Part shown: positions 1 through 24,347 of the stretch, one piece after another
Layout: each line of letters begins with the position of its first letter
Numbering within the stretch: position 1 is the stretch's first letter
Source of the DNA: a phage
Strand: one strand, 5' to 3'
Length of the DNA stretch: 64,000 bases
Sequence record: OZ346228.1
Translations under genes and position numbers: made by a program
Notes under the pieces: generated by a model
Database searches by the model: none
What the model saw: the letters and a program-made list of their open reading frames with translations, nothing else
What the model was told of the DNA's origin: nothing

Positions 1-1463
1 ACTGTGGATGTGCAAACGCAGTAGATACTTTTGCAAACAATGAGAAATTTATCCGTAGCTACGGAACAGTGGTCCTTGCAATGGACAACGATGCGGCTAA
101 CGAGGTAGAGAAGCAAAAACACGTTATCAAAGGTGTTGAAGCCACACATAATATTGCAGCATTTTTGATGGCTGACAACGTTTACCACGTGGAATATCCT
201 GGCGAGGTAAACGACCCTGATGGTGTAAAAGATATCCGTGACATGCTGAAGGCTAAAAAGCTGGAAGATATTGTAAACATGTTCCGGCATCCTGTTAAGT
301 ATGTGCCTGATGCTGTGTCGGATTTAGAAGACTTCTCTATCGAATCTTTGCGGAAAAAGACTTCCAACGGGGTAGATATCAGCGCAGAGTTTCCAAAACT
401 GCAAAAAATGCTAAAAGGCTTGCACAAAGGGACACTCGTAATGCTTACAGGTCCATCAGGAGGTGGTAAAACAACTGTAGCCAAAAAACTGGAACACTGT
501 ATTGCAAGATACCTAATGGACCCGACATGTCCAAAGGCCGATGACTACGAAGAGGATGATCGTCTATGCATGATTCATCTTGAGGAGGACCCAGAGGAAG
601 CAATTAACTCCTTGTATGCAAACCAGTTAGGGTTTGATGTTAAAGAGTTTGTTGAAGATCCTAGCCAGTTTTTAACTGATCAAGAACATGCAGAGATTCA
701 CCAATCATGGGCAAAAGCTGGAAAAATCAAAGTGTTCAAACATTTCGGGTCTATTCCAGTGGACGAGTTGATTACCAAGCTTAAGCAAATGGTCTGCCTG
801 TACCATTGTCGCTATATTGTGCTGGATCACCTGTCTATGGTAATTTCAGGGCTTAATGTTAAAGATGAGCGAAAAGAACTGGACATGGCTATGACTCAGC
901 TGGCTGCGTTTTGTAAGCAGTTTAACGTGTTTATCTTGGTGATCGCTCACCTCAAACGTACAGAGATTGTGCCTCCTAAGGACAAGGATGGTAACCCATT
1001 ACCTTTCTGGTATCCTGTGCGAAAAGAGAATTTGCGAGGATCGGCTGGGCTTGAACAGTTGAGTTGGGTAGTCATAGGTGTCGAGGCCGAAGAAATGGTG
1101 GATCGTTCTCGTGGGCGTGTCCGTCTGGTAGGTCTTAAAAACCGTCCAGCAAAAACTTTAGGTATTGCTGACACTTTAGTTATGGACCCACATACAGGTA
1201 AGTTCCATGATGCCAGTAATTGGTACTGGGACAAAGAAATGCAGATGTTTACAGACGGAGAAGGTGGGGAGGTTGTTTGGAGACCTCAGGCCATGTTTGA
1301 GGACCAAGAGCATGCAGTTGTAGAAACACCTATGGGCAAGGTTGTAGCCGATAAGGTTGTAACTCCTACTATTAAGCCTGTTGACACGCAGGAAGACCTT
1401 CAGTACGATGATCCATCCTCTGATCCGGTCCCCGGTTTTGAGGATGATGAAACACCTTTTTAA
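1..1463 (+). CDS. DNA primase/helicase, T7 gp4-like (5' end upstream of window)
   Basis: Frame open from nt 3 with no start; TOPRIM-like VVLAMDNDAAN, Walker A LTGPSGGGKTT, helicase-like body; acidic C-terminus ending DDETPF. Confidence 0.85.
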   Translation, partial: CGCANAVDTFANNEKFIRSYGTVVLAMDNDAANEVEKQKHVIKGVEATHNIAAFLMADNVYHVEYPGEVNDPDGVKDIRDMLKAKKLEDIVNMFRHPVKYVPDAVSDLEDFSIESLRKKTSNGVDISAEFPKLQKMLKGLHKGTLVMLTGPSGGGKTTVAKKLEHCIARYLMDPTCPKADDYEEDDRLCMIHLEEDPEEAINSLYANQLGFDVKEFVEDPSQFLTDQEHAEIHQSWAKAGKIKVFKHFGSIPVDELITKLKQMVCLYHCRYIVLDHLSMVISGLNVKDERKELDMAMTQLAAFCKQFNVFILVIAHLKRTEIVPPKDKDGNPLPFWYPVRKENLRGSAGLEQLSWVVIGVEAEEMVDRSRGRVRLVGLKNRPAKTLGIADTLVMDPHTGKFHDASNWYWDKEMQMFTDGEGGEVVWRPQAMFEDQEHAVVETPMGKVVADKVVTPTIKPVDTQEDLQYDDPSSDPVPGFEDDETPF

Positions 1464-1521
1464 TGTTTAACAAAGAGTGGGAGGGGTAGTACAACCGCCT
1501 CCCCTTTAAGGAGAACTGTAT

Positions 1522-3945
1522 ATGAGCATGTGGTCGTTCGACTTTGAGTCATCCGGTTTGCTGGAAGACCCAGATCTTTATTATCACTGCGGCCTGTTTA
1601 AAGAGCTGAATAAGAACCGTTTTATGCTGTTCCTTCCTCTAAATGACCGCACACACTACTCCGAGGAGGATATAGAAAAGGCTAAGAACTTCATTCTGGC
1701 AAAGAAAACTCTTTATAAAGATTTTGAAGTTCGCATAGCAGATTTTTCAGAGTTGGAAGGTTGGCTTACAGGAAATTCTGACTGGTCACCAACAGCTTTG
1801 AACTGCCATAACTGCTACAGTTATGACTTTATGCTGATGGAAAGATTATCTGGTATTCATTTTGATATGTTCCGTGATCCTAAGTGTATGGGGACTATCA
1901 ACGATCACCAGGTTAACCTGTTTGATACGTTGGCGATGAGCCGAATCTTGTGGCCTGATCGCCCTTTACCAAAAGGTTGTCCGGACTCTGTATTCAACCC
2001 GGTTACTAAGAAAATGCAGCCTGTTGGTCCTCACGGCCTTATGGCATGGGGCTACGCCCTTGGTAACCAGAAAGTTCAAATTGATGACTGGCGCGATCTT
2101 CCGTTATGGAAGTATGTGGATCGTGTATTTGAGGACGTTATCATCCAGGAGCTGCTCTGGAAAGAGCTGGTAGCGGAATCAAAAGGTGTATTCTACGGCA
2201 AATCTGACATGCAGAACTTTATGTACGATCCTGCCAAAGAGAAGCCGAAAGGGTTCAAGAAGATCACCTGGAAGAACGCATTACGTCGAGGCATGTTGCA
2301 GCACTTCCTGATGGAGCTGCAGGCCCGTCAGGGTGTATACTTCGACATAGATGGGGCTATTGCTTTACGTGACCGCTGCGATGCGTGGATGAAAGAGATC
2401 GCTGATCGTGTTGAACCACAACTGCCTTTAAAAGAGCTGTCAATGTCTCAGCGGCCCAAGTTCCCTGAAAAGCCGTTTAACCAAGATGGGACAATCTCTA
2501 ATAATGGTTGGAAATGGTTAAAAGATAAGCTTGGCTATCCTGTGGACATGAGTGCTTTAGAGTTCAAAGCCCCACCTAAGCGAGCATTTACCTCTACAGG
2601 AGATGTCAGTAAGATGGGGATAAAATGGTGTGAAGAGATGGGCTGCAAAGACCACGATAAGATGGCTGATTTCTTGAGAGGTTATATTAAGGGCACCTCC
2701 ACACCACAACCTTTACCTAAAGAGCTGATGGATCAGGCAATAAGCGATCTGCAACAGAAGCGAATGCCTGACTGCAAGATACCTATGAAAATCAGCAATC
2801 AGGACGACATTAAGCGATACCTGATCAGTGCTGGTTGGCTTCCGACAATGTGGAGAACTAAGGATGTAACTAAGGACAGCAAGAAGAAAGCTCTACCTGA
2901 TGCAGATGTTGATGCACGAGTATATGCATACATGGACGAGCTTTTAGAGTCAGAGTATTGTGACCTAATTATCAACTTCTGGAACAAAACTGATGCTAAG
3001 TTTCAGACAACAGTGCACAAGTTCCGAAGCTTTCCTAACTCCGAAAGGATTAAAAAGGAAGTGTTCGGGAAAATACGCAGAAAAGCCAGGGCACTTATTA
3101 CTTCTCCGCAACTGAAAGATACGTTTGGACACCTATGTCCGAATCTTGAAAAATTGAACGGAGAGATGGCTAAAGATATCGTCTTGTGGTTATCATTGCG
3201 AAACCGCAGATCGGTCCTTGATCCAATCAAGGAGGATAAGGTTGATACTGGTCTTCTTAATCACCCACGTTTGAAGATTGACCATAAGCTTCCTGCTAAA
3301 AGCTCTGGATTAACAAACACTTCCCGACAGAAACACAGTATTTGTGCAAACATGCCTAAACCATCTCCTAAAGTGGTTATGGGTAAAGAGATGCGTAGCT
3401 TGTGGGGTGTTCCTCCTGGATACTTTGAGATCGGTATTGACGGGTCCAACTTAGAGCAGCTTATCGGGGCTTGGGGTGCCTTTGAGTTCGACAACGGCTT
3501 GTACTATGATGTTGTAAGTAACGGGGACGCACACCAAAACAATGCTGAGGCATATACAAAAGTAGCAGGCAGAGAGGTGTCTCGTAACGACGGTAAACCT
3601 ATCACGTATGGGGTTATGTACGGGGCACAAAAAGATAAAGTTGCAGATATGCTGGATATCTCCCCAGAGTTGGGGCAAAGGGTGATCGATGCACTTTGGG
3701 ATGCCAACCCAGGTCTTAAGGGGCGCAAAGAGGATCTGGAGAAATTCTGGGAAGCAACAGGTAAGAAGTTTATCTACTCTTTTGATGGTCATGCTATCTG
3801 GACCCGATCTAAACACTCTTTACTTAATGCATACCAACAAAATGGCGGCGCATCGTTGTGTGACTTAGTTGGGATACTCATGCACCATCAAATGGTGAAG
3901 CGTGGGTGGTACGATGAAGGTGTTCGTCGTATTATCTATTACCAT
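1522..3945 (+). CDS. DNA polymerase family A (T7 gp5-like), exon 1
   Basis: RBS AAGGAGA; N-terminal exo motif FDFESSG, HGLMAWGYALG region, motif A IDGSNLEQL, motif B KPITYGVMYGAQ; frame stops 2 codons after ..IIYYH, before any HDE motif C. Confidence 0.85.
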
Positions 3946-4787
3946 AAATAACATTGTGGCTTCGTGCAGTGATGCACGTCGAAAACCTCTTTAATTGACG
4001 GGAAGGCTAAGTTGACTTTTACACCTAAACATGGTAAAAGCTCAATATGCTAATCCGCAGCGAAGACTAAAGGGGTGTAGTTAAAATGGCTAGATCAGTT
4101 GAGTATCACGGATATACCGTGTTTGATGATGGAACAATACCTTTATCGAAACGTGATCATACAACAATGTTTTGTTTTGATAATGGTCGAGGTTACCTTT
4201 GCGTAACCATGTTCATCGAGGGGAAGCAGTGCACAAAAGGTGTCCACCACTTGGTTGCTGAATGCTTTGTATCAAACCCTGATCCTGAAAGGCTCACATG
4301 GGTGAACCATAAGGACGGAAACAAATACAACAATGCATACTGGAACCTTGAATGGACCACCCCTGGTGGAAATATCAAACACGCTTATGATAATGACCTC
4401 AGAGTAAGGCCAGTCGGTGAGTATAATGCCAACGCTGTACTGACCGAGGATGAGGTAACGGAGATTTGCGAACTGTTACAAAGTGGTTTACGACAATGCG
4501 AGATTAGGGATCTTGGGTATCCTTATGAGACGGTCAGAGCCATAAAGCAAAGAAGACAGTGGAAACATATCTCTAAAAACTACACCTGGTAGTAACGTTC
4601 AGAGACTATCGAAAGCATAGCGCCAACATAAATTGGTGCGAAGAAGCGAGTAGAGTAGACCAGCAAGTGCGGTCGAAATGGGAGGTGCCTTGGTAACAAG
4701 GTAGTGAGATAGTCCGATCCATACAGGAAACTGTATGGCTGTGCACGTAATGGTGCGGGGTAGCTTAACGACCTACCTGAACTATTG
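3946..4787 (+). mobile_element. Group I intron interrupting DNA polymerase before motif C
   Basis: Exon 1 ends on U at 3945; AGACTA (P7 5' strand) at 4064-4069; GAGATAGTCCG (P7 3' strand) at 4706-4716; P9-like hairpin CCATACAG-GAAA-CTGTATGG at 4719-4738; terminal G at 4787; joining gives ..YYH-DEYQLQV. Confidence 0.75.
4086..4592 (+). CDS. HNH homing endonuclease, intron-encoded
   Basis: HNH motif WVNHKDGNKYNNAYWNLEW; lies inside the proposed intron between P7 5' and P7 3' elements. Confidence 0.8.
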   Translation: MARSVEYHGYTVFDDGTIPLSKRDHTTMFCFDNGRGYLCVTMFIEGKQCTKGVHHLVAECFVSNPDPERLTWVNHKDGNKYNNAYWNLEWTTPGGNIKHAYDNDLRVRPVGEYNANAVLTEDEVTEICELLQSGLRQCEIRDLGYPYETVRAIKQRRQWKHISKNYTW

Positions 4788-11984: not shown

Positions 11985-12317
11985 ATGGTAACATTGGAAA
12001 GACGTAAAGCTATTGCCGCCACACTGGCAGACATCTTTTGGGATTGTAATTTAAAATCTACCCGAAATTGTGGTGCATCTGTAGATGTATTATTCCCACG
12101 GCCTACTATTGTTGCAATGGGCAACCTGCTCGATGTGGTATATGGAGCATGGGACAAGGAAGGTGGATTCTATATCTGGCAACCTGACTACGGGACTTGG
12201 AAAGAGGTTAGTGGTTCTTCGGACTTCACTCCTGCAGTGGCTAAAATGGATGGCTGGAAAATCTATGTCGGTAACGACATGGAACTGAAAGGCGAAATTG
12301 TTTACTGGTTACCTTAA
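11985..12317 (+). CDS. hypothetical protein
   Basis: Co-oriented ORF, weak RBS. Confidence 0.45.
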   Translation: MVTLERRKAIAATLADIFWDCNLKSTRNCGASVDVLFPRPTIVAMGNLLDVVYGAWDKEGGFYIWQPDYGTWKEVSGSSDFTPAVAKMDGWKIYVGNDMELKGEIVYWLP

Positions 12318-12338
12318 GAAAGTCCAGGAGATAAAGTT

Positions 12339-12584
12339 ATGAACAAAGGGTGGACATTTGTAGACGGCGTTAAAAACATGCCTCTAGGAAAGTATATTGT
12401 AGCCATGGCAGATGAGAATGGCAAGGTTGATTTCGGAGTTTGCGAGGTTGTTCTTGCAGGATCTGGTGACTATGCTCACAAAACTGGGATAATTAACGGT
12501 CATTTCTACTTTGATTACAACCCTGTTGTGGCGTATATGGCTATGCCAGAGTTCGAGCTCCCAAAGGAAGGTGCAGATGTTTAA
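12339..12584 (+). CDS. hypothetical protein
   Basis: RBS CAGGAG. Confidence 0.5.
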   Translation: MNKGWTFVDGVKNMPLGKYIVAMADENGKVDFGVCEVVLAGSGDYAHKTGIINGHFYFDYNPVVAYMAMPEFELPKEGADV

Positions 12585-12774
12585 GCTTAAATCTGCATGG
12601 AACATCGCTGTGGGGGACGAGATCCGTATCCCAGGTGGAAAGACCATTATGAAAATATCTCGTATCGAGTACGAAGGTGATCGTGTATTTCATATCTTTG
12701 CAGAAGATGGTCGAGAGATTTATATACAGGCAGGATCTCACATCTATATTCGTAAGAAAGGGGAGGACAAATGA
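12577..12774 (+). CDS. hypothetical protein
   Basis: RBS AAGGAAG before internal ATG of track ORF 12511. Confidence 0.45.
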   Translation: MFKLKSAWNIAVGDEIRIPGGKTIMKISRIEYEGDRVFHIFAEDGREIYIQAGSHIYIRKKGEDK

Positions 12775-13100
12775 CAGAGATCATCATTTCAACTGCAGGG
12801 TATGTATTCCTGACAATCATTGCACTGGCTATTTTGGTGACAGTGTATGGGTTTGTTATCCTTCCTATCCTTGAGACATTTAGTTTGTGTCGGTGTTGGA
12901 GAAAAGCTTACGGTCCACAACCATGGAAGGACTGGCCCCACCTGGTGCGCTTAGCGTTCTCTTATGCTTACGATCACTCCAGTAGTGCATGCATAACCGG
13001 ATACCACGCCCACAACTGGAGCTGGGAAGGGTTGAGGAAATGGAATGTTACAAAGACCATACCTCTGCGCATGTACAAACCTAAAAACAAAGACAACTGA
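12771..13100 (+). CDS. hypothetical membrane protein
   Basis: RBS GGGGAGG; N-terminal hydrophobic helix, Cys/Trp-rich tail. Confidence 0.5.
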   Translation: MTEIIISTAGYVFLTIIALAILVTVYGFVILPILETFSLCRCWRKAYGPQPWKDWPHLVRLAFSYAYDHSSSACITGYHAHNWSWEGLRKWNVTKTIPLRMYKPKNKDN

Positions 13101-13104
13101 TACT

Positions 13105-13620
13105 TGAAAATTCCTGGCATATCAAGTATAAGGGGGATTTCTAAAATGGATTTCCTCCTTTTGATATTTCACCGGGCTGGATATTTTAAAATTCTTAGAA
13201 AATCAGAAAATGGATCGAAAACTAAAATGGATTTTTCAGAGTAGGCGCGACAAGCTGAATAACTCATCCTATCGTTTGCACCATATTCCAGGCCACCATT
13301 ATAGATTTCCCACACATGCTAACCTCTCCCTACTAGAACTTCCTCCACTTACCCTTGACCTTCTATGGTAACAATCTAACCGCTATCTTGAAGTTGCGGT
13401 GCAGCTTTCCAGGTACTCGATCTACTTTTCATTTCAGGGCTTGGATTTTCTGAAAATTTTTCTCGATAAATTTCTCAGTACTCGATCTGTTTTTCGTTTT
13501 CTGAATCGGATTTTCTGGAAATCGTTCCGGCTCTCAACCTGAAATTTTTGGGGACGAAATCGATTTTTCGTTTTCAGAAATGGATTTTTAAAATTTCTAT
13601 ATGGGAATATTTTAGTGGAT
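13105..13620. repeat. Non-coding repeat region (iteron-like direct repeats)
   Basis: No credible ORF; AAAATGGATTT x3, GTACTCGATCT x2 inside two ~55-nt direct repeats, GGATTTTCTGRAAA x2. Confidence 0.5.
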
Positions 13621-13704
13621 ACTGTTTTATAGGAAATTGTTACGGAGGGTAATTAGCATGCTAATTAAATTTATTAAATGCGAGGAGTTCTCATTTAGAA
13701 TTTT

Positions 13705-13870
13705 GAATGATAATCATTCTCGTTTGCAGAATAACGGGCAGGCCCGGTGATTGTCTCCCGGCCCCTGTTGCCCCGGCTTGTTATTATAGTATCACACAGG
13801 ACAAAGAAAGCAAGGACTTTTTGCATAAATTTTTAAATGATAATGATAACCGTTCTCATTTTATGCAGCG
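13705..13870. promoter_or_regulatory. Two Fur-box-like palindromes, each followed by a GC-rich tract
   Basis: GAATGATAATCATTCTC (13705-13721) matches about 15/19 of the E. coli Fur box GATAATGATAATCATTATC; second copy AATGATAATGATAACCGTTCTCATT at 13845-13870. Confidence 0.35.
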
Positions 13871-14283
13871 CCCATCCCCGGTGGTTGTCTCCCCCGTCAC
13901 CGGTGCCTGCCGTCCTTTCGATATGTATATTGTGCCACCTGGCGGGGCCGCTGTCAACACTTTTCAAAAAATTTTTCTAACCTGGTGCGCTAACCGTTGC
14001 AACCTGGCGGGGCCAGCCTGGCAGGACCTAACTGACCAGGTAGGGGAGAATGAAGGCTTGTAAACCTGGTGGGCCTATGCTACAGGATAGGTAACAATTG
14101 AAGAGGAGGTACAAAAATGATATGATCCCCCTGGAAAATGTAGCTATTAATGACTCTGAGGCTATCGCCCTGGTTGAAAAGGCTATGGCGGGAGCGTTGG
14201 AACATAAAGAAGAGTACGAAAATGGTGGTTAACCTGGCGGGGGCGGCAGGTGGATTCTATCATAAAAATAATTTAAAATAGTA

Positions 14284-14313
14284 GTTGACAACAAGGTTAA
14301 TCATGGTATTATT
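14284..14313 (+). promoter_or_regulatory. sigma70-like promoter
   Basis: TTGACA -35, about 17-nt spacer, ATTATT -10. Confidence 0.45.
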
Positions 14314-14362
14314 ACCCTACAAGGTGAACAACACCGCACTAACCAGTAAAGAGGATAAATTT

Positions 14363-14560
14363 ATGAACGCATACGGGATCAAAGTACGTCGCAACACTCG
14401 CCAGGTGGTCACCAATCAAGTGATTTGCCGGGTGGATGTAACCATCAACAACGGGCAAGGCCTTTATAAATTTCGTCGCGGTCATAGCTATACCCTGCAA
14501 CAGCTTAATCGTTGCGCCCTGACAAAAGGTCAGATCAACCACTGGTTTAATAAAAAATAA
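14363..14560 (+). CDS. hypothetical protein
   Basis: RBS AAGAGG; downstream of promoter. Confidence 0.55.
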   Translation: MNAYGIKVRRNTRQVVTNQVICRVDVTINNGQGLYKFRRGHSYTLQQLNRCALTKGQINHWFNKK

Positions 14561-14564
14561 GTAT

Positions 14565-14593
14565 TGACATACAGTCAGACACCAAATACACTA
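14565..14593 (+). promoter_or_regulatory. sigma70-like promoter (weaker -10)
   Basis: TTGACA followed at 17 nt by TACACT. Confidence 0.4.
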
Positions 14594-14624
14594 AAAGCAC
14601 AAAAGACACTAAGAGGATAAAATC

Positions 14625-14810
14625 ATGAAAACCACTACCTTTAATTTTGATAATGCAGACTTTTCTTTTTCTGATGTCAAGAACTGCCGCCGTGATCGTG
14701 GATTTTACAAGGCTTATAATCTGGTGGGCCTGGACGATGACAATAATTTGCACGAAGTAGCTGAGATCCAGCTTGACAGATTGGACGGGAAAGTACTAAA
14801 AACTTATTGA
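14625..14810 (+). CDS. hypothetical protein
   Basis: RBS AAGAGG. Confidence 0.55.
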   Translation: MKTTTFNFDNADFSFSDVKNCRRDRGFYKAYNLVGLDDDNNLHEVAEIQLDRLDGKVLKTY

Positions 14811-14811
14811 G

Positions 14812-14858
14812 TTTATTTTTAGATGGCCTTGACACCAGGGCCATCAATAAAGTAAACT
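14812..14858 (+). repeat. Conserved post-stop intergenic element, copy 1
   Basis: TTATTTTTAGATGGCCTTGACACCAGGGCCATCAATAAAGTAAAC; 7-bp stem GATGGCC/GGCCATC around TTGACA. Confidence 0.6.
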
Positions 14859-14890
14859 AACCACAGTTGAGCGGAAAAGGAGGCTTAAAG

Positions 14891-15010
14891 ATGAGCACTA
14901 CACGCCAGCACACAAAGGTAACCATCATCGTTTGCATCATTGGGTACATCCTGGCGCAAATGTTGATGGGTAGCGCCAACGGTGTCGCAAAATTTTTCTT
15001 AAACTTTTAA
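14891..15010 (+). CDS. small hydrophobic peptide (39 aa)
   Basis: RBS AAAGGAGG; predicted TM helix VTIIVCIIGYILAQMLMG; below the ORF-track cutoff. Confidence 0.4.
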   Translation: MSTTRQHTKVTIIVCIIGYILAQMLMGSANGVAKFFLNF

Positions 15011-15038
15011 TTGACAAGCTAACTTAAATCGATATAAT
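15011..15038 (+). promoter_or_regulatory. sigma70 consensus promoter
   Basis: TTGACA, 16-nt spacer, TATAAT. Confidence 0.65.
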
Positions 15039-20938: not shown

Positions 20939-21984
20939 AAGCACATAGCCGCCAGATCTCAGAATTTACGTACGCTCACCAGTCTATAGCCTGCTAAGTA
21001 TTTATTCCAACCATAGAATAACGGAATAGTCAATACCTGCATAAAATAATTATTCGTGTAAACTGCATAACATAAATCGGCTAGGATGTCAACATTTTTC
21101 GTAAACAGCTCGAAATTATAACGGTGAGTTATAATAAACAGAGAAATCTTTAGTCGTCTAATGTTTACTGTACATTACTATACTGACTGGAATCATTAGA
21201 TGACTAAGAGAAAGATAAGAAATCATTAACAATGCAATTGTTTTATTCGTAACAATAAGGCAACTATGCAAACGGATGGCATGGCGCGACGGAGTCGCGA
21301 CATAATATAAAAGCAGTAACCATCACCCCCGTGATAGTTTGTCTGCAAACTATTAATCAGATCATAGTTGCCTTGTATTTAGTTAATCATGACATAACAA
21401 GCAAGGCAACTATAGATCTGCTAATAGTTGCCCTGCTTTTATATTATGTCATAGATTATTAGCCTGTTAATTGTTAGTCAGTCAAATCAACAACGTTATC
21501 ATTTCAGTCTTTATTGTTGTTGATCGTTATTGTTATCATGCAAACGAATGGCATGGCTTATCATTTTTGAGTAAACAATCTATACGTGAACAGTGAGGCA
21601 TGCAATAGTAAGGGCGGGAATAATGAGAGTGTAAACTGTCAGGCATGTCAATTATATCAATCGTGTCAGTTATGTCACCATTATGTCAGACAAGTTTTTC
21701 TCCTCTTTGTCAAGTGCTGCATGAAAAATTTACAATCTTGTATGGTAGCATTTTTGCGGCCCTGTTTACATTCAGTATTGTATGTATAATCCTTGTTGTG
21801 TGGGCGTTTAGACGTCTAGACGGTCAGAAGTCTGCAGGTTAATATCTAATCTATCGGCTGCTAACTATATCCCACACAAATAGTAAGAAATATAATTGTT
21901 ATGTGCGTAAACAGTAACTCATGTTATCAATCCCTGTATGTATCGCCAGTGGTGCGCATAATGGGTATTATGTTAAATTGCCCG

Positions 21985-22128
21985 TAATGATAATGGTTCT
22001 CACAATGATAGGTATTCTCATTCCCCCACACAAAATAGATTGCAAATGTTGTGCCACTATGTGAACGGCCTCACCTATTAATTTGCCTCACTGCCTCGAT
22101 ATTTGAGAATTATCATAAGAATGAGAAG
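21985..22128. promoter_or_regulatory. Further copies of the Fur-box-like motif inside the 2.2-kb non-coding region
   Basis: AATGATAATGGTTCTCACAATGATAGGTATTCTCATT and inverted GAGAATTATCATAAGAATGAGAAG. Confidence 0.3.
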
Positions 22129-23125
22129 TATTCCCATTTCGTCCGCCTGGCAGCACTCCAGTCGCTACGGCTCAGAACAGGGCAGAATTGTGTCCATTCA
22201 GATATTTCTGTCTGGCTCTTCAGGTCTGTGTGGGAAAAGTCCACCTCTCTGGCGGGGCATGGGGTCATGACGGGAAAATTGCAGGTCAATTAAAAAATTT
22301 ACGTGGTGTATGAAGCGCTCTTCAGGTAAGGCATGTATTATGGGATGAAACCCTCTTCAGGCAATGATATTTGTGGGTGTGATATTTGCTGGAAAGCCAG
22401 ATATGACGGGACTCCCGGCGGGGCAGGGGTAGTACAGACAGGGGAAATATGGAGGATGTGGTTAGGTGAATTGATCAGACAGGTAGAGTATGGAATATGT
22501 TACAGGTATGTTAAATAGGGCGGCTGAATATCTGTAGGATTTGTGTGTAAAATCAAAGACTTAAGTGGTGTTGTGGTATTTTCTATAAATAATTCAAGTT
22601 TAATAGGTAATATTTGTCTCTATTCGCTTTGTGTGGTAAACAGATTCAGATGAGATTGGTTTACAAGCGTATACATAATATACAAATTAAAGATACAAGA
22701 AACCCCCCTCCCCCTTCGGCTACCATTCACCTTTTCCTCTGACTGGTACTTAAACACTTATTCAGACTCTTCAGGTTATCACCCATATATCATATGGCAG
22801 TGACTGGTGTCCTCCGGCCCCTCTTTCGTCACCCGTCCGCTTCGCCATGCTAATGCCATAGCCAATGGTTCGGTTGTTCACCCTGTTCACTCAGGTGTAT
22901 CTCCATACCCCTTCAAAACGAAGAGAACAGAAAACCCGAATTACTCGGTAAAAGAAAAGAGAAGAACTTAATTTTATCAGGATAGGCAAGAATGTCAAGG
23001 CATGACTGCTCACTAAACAAGCAAACAGTCATGTGTGGGAGGTAAGTGATTGTGGTGGTAGGAAATTTAGTTGAAAGATGTGTTATAGGTGCTTCCAGCA
23101 CTTTAGCCGGGCAGCTAATTGTGTG

Positions 23126-23341
23126 TCAGTCCAGCGGTTCATCCTCTACTTCACTGAAATCAATGTTCATGGTCTCTTCCCAACCATCGATCTCAGCACA
23201 AGAGTGGAGTTCTTTAGGGTTTACTCCTAAAGCCTCAGCAACAGAGTCTATATTTAACACCTCTGGCAGGTATGATTCATCAAATTCAAGGTAAATCAGG
23301 CCACGAGTGTTGTCAGCTCCACCAAATATTTCTATCTTCAT
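23126..23341 (-). CDS. hypothetical acidic protein
   Basis: RBS GAGGAG; last gene of leftward array. Confidence 0.5.
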   Translation of the reverse strand: MKIEIFGGADNTRGLIYLEFDESYLPEVLNIDSVAEALGVNPKELHSCAEIDGWEETMNIDFSEVEDEPLD

Positions 23342-23462
23342 AAAATCTCCTCTGGAAATGAGAGTGTGAACAGGGTTTTATACGTCCCAATGCACAGGAA
23401 TTATGCACGTTTTCCTCTTCAGGCCATGCTTTAGCATGAGGAACCTGTGTGGGCTCGGTGCT

Positions 23463-23675
23463 TCATAGTCTACCACCTCTGAACTCTTCGTGCTCAGGCA
23501 TAATAGAGAACCAGATATCTACGATGTCCTCCCACGTCAGGTCATCAGCCTCAGGATCTGTCTGGGACGAAGATGAAGAGTCCTCAGAATCTAAGTTTTC
23601 CTCTTTAACTGGCTCATCCAAGGGACATATGGTCACTCCTTCGGATGTCTCTTCAGATGCATGTGTGTTGATCAT
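23463..23675 (-). CDS. hypothetical acidic protein
   Basis: D/E/S-rich ORF. Confidence 0.5.
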   Translation of the reverse strand: MINTHASEETSEGVTICPLDEPVKEENLDSEDSSSSSQTDPEADDLTWEDIVDIWFSIMPEHEEFRGGRL

Positions 23676-24035
23676 GTTCCACCCGTGAGTATTCCGGCAA
23701 CAGCTGCTATGGACGTAATGATCATCAGGATCACCACTAAAACTTCGGACAATGTTCTCATTGTGTACTCCATATTCTACAAACTATGTGTGGATACTAT
23801 CACTGGATCGGTAATGTGTCAACAGAAACGCCGCGAGGGTTTGGTTAAAATCCGAGCGTATGGTGATTTGGGTCAAAACGGACGTGCGTTCTCGCTACGC
23901 TCGAAAGAGAGATTTGTTTGTAGGAAGCTCTTAAACGCTCTGTAATGAGATTATCTGTCCAAGGTATGCAATCGTGCACCAGATAAAGAAAAGGACGCCA
24001 CAGAGCGTCCTAGGTGTCTTAAATTTGATATTTTG

Positions 24036-24347
24036 CTATACCCATGAGGGCTTATCAAGGTTGGAGTAGCTGAAAGGTGTCAAAAGGTGACTGTCAAAAT
24101 CTCTCAAACTATCTAAATCTTTTTCCTCGTCCTGACACCATCTGTGCCTACATTTATTGTTGTAGTGCATAGAATGCATAGCGTTCTGCAACTTAACAGG
24201 TACAAGTGATTCAGGAGTAGATAGTATTGTTGGGTATGCCAGAATCACCTCAAACAGTGGAAACACATCGAAACTAAAGTCTACCTCTGCAGAGGTTGAT
24301 GGCATATAGGAGTATTTAGCCGCCTTTGTAGACATAATCCACCTCAC
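24036..24347 (-). CDS. hypothetical protein
   Basis: Co-oriented ORF; 4-nt overlap with upstream gene. Confidence 0.45.
   Translation of the reverse strand: MRWIMSTKAAKYSYMPSTSAEVDFSFDVFPLFEVILAYPTILSTPESLVPVKLQNAMHSMHYNNKCRHRWCQDEEKDLDSLRDFDSHLLTPFSYSNLDKPSWV

Follow-up and report, generated by a model that had tools for sequence, protein, structure and literature searches.

Judged from its sequence, the repeat-rich region near position 13,100 of OZ346228.1 is the left, repeat-array half of a single-copy non-coding element of about 950 bp, which runs from 13101 to approximately 14060. We propose, with a probability of roughly 0.4, that this element is a transcription-activated replication origin. 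The DNA analysed, referred to here as the window, is a 64,000-nt stretch of a phage genome; it was found to be a Vequintavirus (rV5-like myovirus) segment with 99% identity to Escherichia phage EdH4 over positions 12000-15000. The initial annotation had placed the repeat block at 13105-13620, which proved too narrow, as the conserved non-coding sequence continues to about 14060. It had also offered a replication origin, a packaging site or a genome end as possible functions; the origin fits most of the evidence, whereas packaging is unlikely and the genome-end option is refuted. The rV5-like phages are among the commonest E. coli phage isolates and are candidates for therapy, but descriptions of a replication origin in these phages, or of any other essential cis-acting site except the terminal repeats, are lacking. 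The authors of the rV5 genome sought an origin by skew analysis and located none, and full-text literature searches turned up no account of an origin, a non-coding RNA or a transcript map for rV5-like phages, or of this element.

The fine structure of the element was derived from an alignment of 13 genomes. The following features were distinguished, with the strand given where one applies.

13130-13170, + strand: T1, a hairpin (13130-13160; 8-bp outer and 4-bp inner stem) with a U-run
13175-13243: block A2, near-invariant, with GGAT-centred words at 13179, 13212 and 13229, including GAAAATGGATCGAAAACTAAAATGGATTTTT
13244-13410: variable spacer of conserved length, present as several mosaic haplotypes
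13411-13475: unit V1, GGTACTCGATCT...TTTTCATTTC...GGATTTTCTGAAAATTTTTC
13476-13541: unit V2, GTACTCGATCT...TTTTCGTTTTC...CGGATTTTCTGGAAATCG, the last 17 nt variable
13542-13615: unit V3, AAATTTTTGGGGACGAAATCGATTTTTCGTTTTCAGAAATGGATTTTTAAAATTTC, the best conserved unit (92% invariant columns)
13544-13581, + strand: T2, a hairpin of 16 bp with four G.U pairs, followed by GGAUUUUUAAAAUUU, inside V3
13562-13638: the least stable duplex, 5% C, a candidate unwinding element that abuts the array
13676-13725: operator-like words, two Fur-box-like palindromes (AAATGCGAGGAGTTCTCATTT and TGAATGATAATCATTCTCGTTT), outside the block as first drawn
13730-13925: near-invariant stretch of two tandem sub-units of about 135 nt, with a third operator-like word at 13836-13860 and + strand C-runs
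13929-13957, - strand: sigma-70 promoter with an extended -10 (TTGACA-17-TGgCACAAT), pointing leftward at the array

As evident from 1000 dinucleotide-preserving shuffles of the 516-bp region first described, the repeats are real and lie far above chance. The region holds 13 repeated 10-mers against 0.5 expected, and none of the shuffles reached 13; GGATTT occurs six times against 0.7 expected (0/1000 shuffles), and GGAT is found nine times on the + strand versus once on the - strand. The 10-mer AAATGGATTT is exact at 13144, 13225 and 13578 and has no other copy in the 64-kb window. A word had earlier been reported to occur three times in the block; this is true of the core AAATGGATTT, whereas the 11-mer AAAATGGATTT is exact only at the first two of these sites and reads GAAATGGATTT at the third. 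The two direct repeats previously estimated at about 55 nt are present as 57-nt units opened by GTACTCGATCT at 13412 and 13477, with 74% identity and a spacing of 65, and a third, more diverged copy was found at 13542 with a spacing of 74. Likewise, GGATTTTCTGRAAA is indeed present twice, at 13443 and 13508. The shorter GGAT words are irregularly spaced, and their core is altered (G to A) at two sites in five genomes. The repeat words occur in no other part of the window, nor in the ~74 kb of EdH4, a nearly identical genome, that the window leaves uncovered; judging from these two records, the ~136-kb genome has a single such motif cluster. We also found the block to be single-copy in every record examined. 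A pattern scan of IMG/VR returned one Vequintavirus-sized contig and nine single matches, the latter resembling chance.

The left half of the element opens with T1, which starts 30 nt past the stop codon of the upstream gene and carries the first AAAATGGATTT word in its loop. The fold energy of T1 was -14.9 kcal/mol on the + strand (z -3.1, reached in 0 of 200 shuffles) versus -6.8 on the - strand. In its stem, a compensatory change of G-C to A-U was present in Mangalyan, four positions were changed yet still paired in YP-6, and G.U had become A-U in four genomes. T1 thus combines a stable stem-loop, a U-run just after a gene and a stem kept by compensatory change, all of which are expected of a terminator, and it is probably the intrinsic terminator of the upstream operon. 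T2 folds with -15.9 kcal/mol on the + strand (z -2.5) versus -6.4 on the - strand, was flagged in the terminator scan and shows two one-sided changes that keep the pairing; it appears to be a weak terminator-like element for rightward transcription. In block A (13131-13243), which contains the AAAATGGAT words of block A2, 77% of the columns were invariant across 12 genomes. The spacer that follows showed only 39% invariant columns and a mean pairwise identity of 0.76, and its indels cancel (+1, +1, -2, or +1, -1), so that 13101-13658 stays at 555-559 nt in 13 genomes. The repeat units (13411-13615) are 65-74 nt long and 70-74% alike, with 81-92% invariant columns. The A/T tracts of block B, which holds these units, are phased at 10.75-11 bp (11/500 shuffles), and this phasing should give rise to DNA curvature. 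Any 40-mer that begins within 13562-13599 falls beyond the window's 99th percentile for duplex instability.

The stability of RNA:DNA hybrids was compared with that of the DNA duplex per 100 nt, using nearest-neighbour energies. With approximate RNA:DNA values, rightward RNA through block B and over 13400-13550 formed hybrids near the weak extreme of the window (percentile 99.8 for block B), and leftward RNA through the repeat block was not R-loop-favourable (percentiles 78-90). The weak rightward hybrids and the two + strand hairpins with U-runs could together describe a transcriptional insulator and nothing more, that is, tandem rightward terminators (T1, the U-rich units and T2) placed between the operon and the early block, and the array does sit between two co-oriented gene blocks. 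We consider this quite unlikely. Termination needs tens of bases, compared with a 500-bp block of fixed length that is near-invariant between the hairpins and is found in three genera, and a pure insulator would offer no explanation for the AAAATGGAT words or for the organisation into units. Additionally, the terminator searches of the rV5 and EdH4 authors flagged nothing at the block.

The absence of credible coding potential that had been noted for the block was borne out. Its longest ORF (13210-13371) was disrupted in eight of the 12 relatives: it was cut to 11-14 aa in three, had lost its start codon in a fourth and was frame-shifted into an unrelated peptide in four further ones. Variable sites in this ORF were distributed over the codon positions as 22:23:25, which shows no periodicity, and a hidden small gene in the block was ruled out by the ORF disruption together with the absent codon periodicity. 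The small ORFs of the block are annotated inconsistently, or are absent, in the records of the 12 relatives. In the right half, a 118-aa ORF at 13707-14063 matches the PHROG family phrog_14993 and is annotated as a protein of 92-96 aa in many relatives. In EdH4, Alma and rV5_ev147 its reading frame is interrupted by 1-nt indels, whereas FV3, Mangalyan and YP-6 have a 48-nt deletion that disrupts it. The conserved promoter also runs antisense to this ORF, which is probably not a gene. The ORFs annotated across the element in many records thus appear to be artefacts.

Comparison with related genomes clearly spoke against the non-conservation that had been named as grounds for refuting the block, which is kept in more than 110 genomes. 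The constraint is of a non-coding kind, with 77-92% invariant columns in blocks A2 and B versus 39% in the spacer. The right half is conserved still further afield, as a DNA search with it returned about 160 records from other genera. In a Klebsiella Mydovirus, an Enterobacter Seunavirus and an Escherichia Phapecoctavirus, we found a shared core in which two or three palindromes are followed by GCAGAATGACGGGCA...CCGGTG. The Mydovirus and the Seunavirus carry tandem repeats of about 66-67 nt directly upstream of this core, and these could be aligned with the units of the window. The cross-genus unit consensus reads GGT(T/A)CTCGATC - TTTTC - ATCGGATTTTTTCT - GAAAAAATTTTT, the first word of which may also be given as GGTTCTCGATCG. 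In Vequintavirus as well as in Mydovirus and Seunavirus, TTTTTGGGG closes the array. Unit E0 of the Seunavirus contains TTTTCGATTTAGGAATCGGATTTTTTCT, which is near to TTTTCGTTTTCTGAATCGGATTTTCT of V2. In the Phapecoctavirus, unrelated AT-rich 72-nt repeats occupy the same position. As both the units and the core are shared across genera, the block is best understood as one half of an old composite element, and the persistence of parts of this element in at least three genera on different hosts points to an essential function.

The relation of the array to the two AAAATGGATTT words differs between the genera. In Seunavirus EC152 these words lie upstream of the units and are inverted, whereas they are co-oriented with the units in the window, and this inversion is easier to reconcile with a DNA-binding site than with an RNA motif. 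It bears on the proposal that the block forms all or part of a structured + strand non-coding RNA, for example a long 3' UTR or a decoy comparable to the pseudo-ToxI of PhiTE. Such an RNA would account for the covariation in T1, for the strand specificity of T1 and T2 and for the slight excess of folding on the + strand only; the whole block gave z -1.67 on the + strand and +0.13 on the - strand relative to shuffles. RNAalifold also predicted a long-range helix of 22 bp in which all one-sided changes keep the pairing. This picture failed in a mutational test that was independent of the alignment: when the fold was predicted solely from the sequence of the window, the substitutions found in nature in the conserved blocks disturbed it no less than random ones of the same type (p = 0.38 and 0.53), and a long-range structured RNA was rejected. 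We regard the predicted helices as by-products of the quasi-palindromic words (GATTTT-N3-AAAATC). Moreover, the promoter scan revealed no promoter for an RNA of this kind, Rfam gave no match at E <= 1, and no sequence similar to block B or the right half was found in 5,426 E. coli genomes. Among plasmids, the sole full-length match was CP057073.1, an apparent Vequintavirus genome.

A precedent for such an RNA exists in the same subfamily. The pseudo-ToxI of PhiTE consists of near-identical 36-nt repeats that resemble a host antitoxin and lie beside terminase and tRNA genes (PLoS Genet 2012, PMC3475682). It shares with the block its intergenic position and its tandem repeats. In contrast, the units of the window are 65-74 nt long and only 70-74% alike, and they have no host or Rfam counterpart. 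The PhiTE locus, next to its terminase and tRNA genes, lacks both the module and the units and was ruled out as the same locus. A type III antitoxin mimic was likewise rejected, as the units are not near-identical repeats of 34-45 nt and have no match in Rfam, E. coli or plasmids; host mimics in general (antitoxin, CRISPR repeat or sRNA) were ruled out by the lack of a counterpart in the 5,426 E. coli genomes. Overall, a non-coding RNA is an unlikely explanation of the block. Blocks A2 and B are treated here as putative DNA-level sites, because the mutational test was negative, no promoter or Rfam match was found and AAAATGGATTT is inverted elsewhere, while T1 is treated as an RNA-level feature. 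As a separate observation, tRNA-Met, tRNA-Ile and tRNA-Lys are annotated across the module in Klebsiella phage K45PH128C2 (L045 2511-2664 and 3131-3206). ARAGORN found no tRNA in the window or in three relatives; the tRNA-Met, which covers the segment homologous to 13670-13752, was rejected on this ground, and the tRNAs of K45PH128C2 are probably false annotations.

The right half showed the strongest constraint of the element. Over the 340 bp of 13625-13965, about 93% of the columns were invariant among genomes whose neighbouring genes show 15-18% divergence. The words at 13676-13725 are invariant in 13 genomes and are kept in Mydovirus, Seunavirus and Phapecoctavirus. The third word matches the E. 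coli Fur box consensus at 16 of 19 positions (13839-13857), which is the sole such match in 64 kb. These words belong to a palindromic family, ATGA(T/G)AANNRTTCTC, with sites at 13676-13725, 13836-13860, 21987-22019 and 22121-22135. Within the ~136-kb genome the family is limited to the module beside the array and to the terminal repeat, and it is also kept in the three other genera. Candidate ligands of the words are host Fur and a phage protein that connects the module with the terminal repeat. The + strand of the near-invariant stretch contains seven C-runs and one G-run. To the right of it, the promoter at 13957-13929 is near-consensus in sequence and stands at the same offset in 13 of 13 genomes, pointing towards 13638-13562. 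A comparable promoter was found in Phapecoctavirus anhysbys; at the same stringency, none was found in the Mydovirus or Seunavirus examined. Leftward RNA over 13850-13950, at the start of the transcript expected from this promoter, has the best balance of RNA:DNA over DNA:DNA stability of all 100-nt stretches in the window (percentile 0.0, again with approximate RNA:DNA energies).

The main rival to the origin is a control region for the early (host-takeover) genes, in which Fur or a phage repressor would act on the operator words over a weak rightward promoter, the curved array would have an architectural or activating role and the terminators would insulate. The operator-like words and the weak + strand promoter-like sequence fit such a region equally well. 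In particular, all four genera keep unchanged two or three palindromic words that overlap TTGAAT-18-CAGAAT, the word at 13839 is the Fur-box match described above, and the element heads the promoter-rich early block. The rightward terminator-like nature of T1 and T2 and the weakness of the rightward hybrids in block B (percentile 99.8, from the same approximate energies) would also be expected. On the other hand, the early promoters at 14285-15011 carry none of the operator-like words, and since these words are present only at the module and the terminal repeat, control of the entire early block through them is ruled out. The putative rightward promoter agrees with the consensus at eight of 12 positions and is absent from the promoter scan, and the upstream activating regions known so far are much smaller than this array of 200-500 bp, which is shared across genera. 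We therefore give the control region a real but minor chance.

Beyond the inward promoter, the element passes into a variable zone. We observed TGC(C/A)ACCTGGCGGGGCC repeated at 13933 and 13998 (zone 13933-14014). The + strand turns G-rich to the right of the promoter, with rightward RNA over 14000-14100 at percentile 0.0 for hybrid stability by the same approximate energies, a mirror of the C-rich sequence on the left. FV3, Mangalyan and YP-6 lack 48 nt in the zone 14000-14200. The whole of 13965-15000 is a hot zone for indels, and the distance between the conserved element and position ~15000 is about 1.2 kb longer in EdH4 and about 0.7 kb longer in Alma. As a consequence, relatives differ in how far the array lies from the genome end, with values of 8.5 to 11.7 kb.

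The position of the genome end was taken from EdH4, in whose record positions 1-459 equal 135573-136031. This terminal repeat maps to 21689-22147 of the window, where two converging gene blocks meet, and the gene coordinates of Gotham agree with this placement. Published terminal redundancies are of the same size (458-bp terminal repeats in EdH4 and HdK5 and a 459-bp one in Gotham). The repeat block thus lies 8.5-9.0 kb inside the physical end in the window and 11.7-12.2 kb (8.6-9.0%) from the left end in EdH4. A genome end or packaging-initiation site at the block would agree with its repeat-rich, non-coding nature and with its size, which is near that of the published terminal repeats. The terminal repeat about 8.5 kb away refutes the former and, by its location, also makes a packaging site unlikely, and the block is single-copy in all records examined; we see virtually no chance for this explanation. 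The record of Seunavirus EC152 starts within its own array yet has no terminal duplication, and its start was dropped as a candidate terminus. A different word family just outside the block (ATGATAANNRTTCTC) also occurs in the terminal repeat. About 3 kb around the genome end (20945-24036) contain no ORF of at least 100 aa and adjoin the kilobase with the lowest G+C of the window (0.354, 21001-22000).

The distance of the array from the end recalls the injection stop region of T5, which is untranslated, contains 66-bp DRE units and eight ordered, paired DnaA boxes and lies at 7.9% of the genome (Davison, bioRxiv 10.1101/866236). By analogy, a segment of 8.5-12 kb with tiny host-takeover genes and strong host promoters might enter first, entry would pause at the array and the rest would follow once early proteins had been made. 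The array stands 8.6-9.0% from the left physical end in EdH4, close to the T5 value, and both regions bound small early genes with host promoters. Both are also untranslated and more conserved than the ORFs next to them, and both abound in palindromes and in direct and inverted repeats. Additionally, a word family is common to the region of the block and the terminal repeat, and hypersensitivity to daunorubicin is common to Vequintaviruses and T5-like phages. The likeness is one of architecture and position. The ordered DnaA boxes of T5 are absent, and the phage is a myovirus with a terminal repeat of 459 bp rather than 10 kb. No contractile-tailed phage is known to deliver its DNA in two steps. 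The early-block ORFs of at least 100 aa reach at most 207 aa, compared with the much larger A1 of T5, and the array-to-end distance is not constant between relatives (8.5 to 11.7 kb). A DNA-entry stop is very unlikely on these grounds.

We prefer a replication origin as the explanation of a single-copy cis-element that looks essential and is probably not the packaging site. In favor of an origin are the strong constraint across genera, the phased A/T tracts, the adjacent meltable stretch, the inward promoter in 13 of 13 genomes with its hybrid-favouring transcript region, the terminators that would screen the array from the upstream operon, and the inverted AAAATGGATTT words of the Seunavirus. 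The phage also encodes its own DnaB-like helicase and family-A polymerase, and no origin was identified by the rV5 authors. From this arrangement we infer protein binding, actual transcription, R-loop formation and initiation of replication as follows. Rightward transcription of the upstream operon would be stopped at T1 and its leakage at T2, which would spare the array from passing transcription. A phage or host protein would bind the AAAATGGAT words and the three curved units of about 66 nt. The host-type promoter at 13957-13929 would send a leftward RNA, whose clustered G residues would make it prone to stay hybridised to the template. This hybrid may then help to open the AT-rich 13562-13638 beside the array, where the T7-like helicase-primase and the polymerase could load.

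Such an arrangement resembles the transcription-activated origins, namely the primary origin of T7, oriF and oriG of T4 and the origin of ColE1. The similarities are a promoter directed into an AT-rich, meltable stretch, a transcript region computed to favour the hybrid, and a T7-like helicase-primase and family-A polymerase with no recognisable initiator gene. Several differences were also present. The promoter is of the host sigma-70 type, in contrast to the phage-polymerase or MotA-dependent promoters of T7 and T4; the stretch to be melted is about 285-360 nt from the predicted start; and the large array of ~66-nt units and the AAAATGGAT words have no counterpart in those origins. Iteron origins (lambda ori, P1 oriR and theta plasmids) share with the element co-oriented repeats, an AT-rich neighbour, single copy and curved DNA. 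They are characterised by at least four near-identical direct repeats of 17-22 bp in helical register, whereas the element has three units of 65-74 nt that are 70-74% alike and are spaced 65 and 74 nt apart, out of helical register. The AT-rich unwinding element of iteron origins is present here (13562-13638, in the least stable 1%), whereas iteron repeats, DnaA boxes, IHF sites and a recognisable adjacent initiator gene are absent. In particular, no exact DnaA box was found in the element and relaxed matches numbered two against 2.0 expected, and there was no IHF site above background. The changes of the GGAT core at two sites, the R-loop-unfavourable repeat block and the lack of the promoter, at the same stringency, in the Mydovirus and the Seunavirus also speak against an origin. 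The probability stays at roughly 0.4 because no initiator is recognisable, the units are not classical and DnaA and IHF sites are absent.

The gene context is in part that of a replication locus. The block had been placed between a replication block and a promoter-rich early block, which holds roughly: the genes for the DnaB-like helicase and the family-A polymerase lie at 69-3951 of the window and strong sigma-70 promoters were found by the promoter scan from 14285 onward, but the replication genes and the repeat block are separated by about 9 kb of genes without a known function. The largest of the early-block ORFs of at least 100 aa has 207 aa. The proteins that flank the repeat block match families of unknown function only, and no initiator or DNA-binding protein was recognisable among the neighbouring genes; a cognate initiator of a new type could be encoded beside the array. 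In a protein-anchored synteny search toward other genera, the flanking proteins were restricted to Vequintavirus. A macro-domain protein was rejected as a synteny anchor because it is too widespread, and the one match followed proved to be an unrelated phage of the Ackermannviridae. In phage phi92 the genes are ordered differently, and the corresponding place lacks a gap.

If the element is an origin, it could be put to use in engineering and in phage-dependent plasmids, and it would help to explain how host polymerase starts a T7-like replisome. Binding of host Fur to the operator words, if it occurs, would tie the lytic early programme to iron status.

Some database records that contain the block carry unexpected labels. 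Sixteen to 17 'Campylobacter phage' records (MG0656xx) share 94-98% identity with the E. coli phage OZ346228.1 over the block, and the E. coli 'plasmid' CP057073.1 (137.5 kb) matches 99% of the block length at 91.5% and is probably a Vequintavirus genome; these entries look like mislabelled records or contaminants. Finally, we observed a GC-rich segment downstream of the module that is common to Mydovirus, Seunavirus and Phapecoctavirus and is absent from the window (L045 2680-2775, L046 425-520 and L044 2685-2775). It reads CTACCGGCGATC.ACCTTCC.ACC...GTTAGCCCCGCCTTT.CGCCGTGGGGTGGCG, lies under an annotated CDS in one record and may be a structured RNA.
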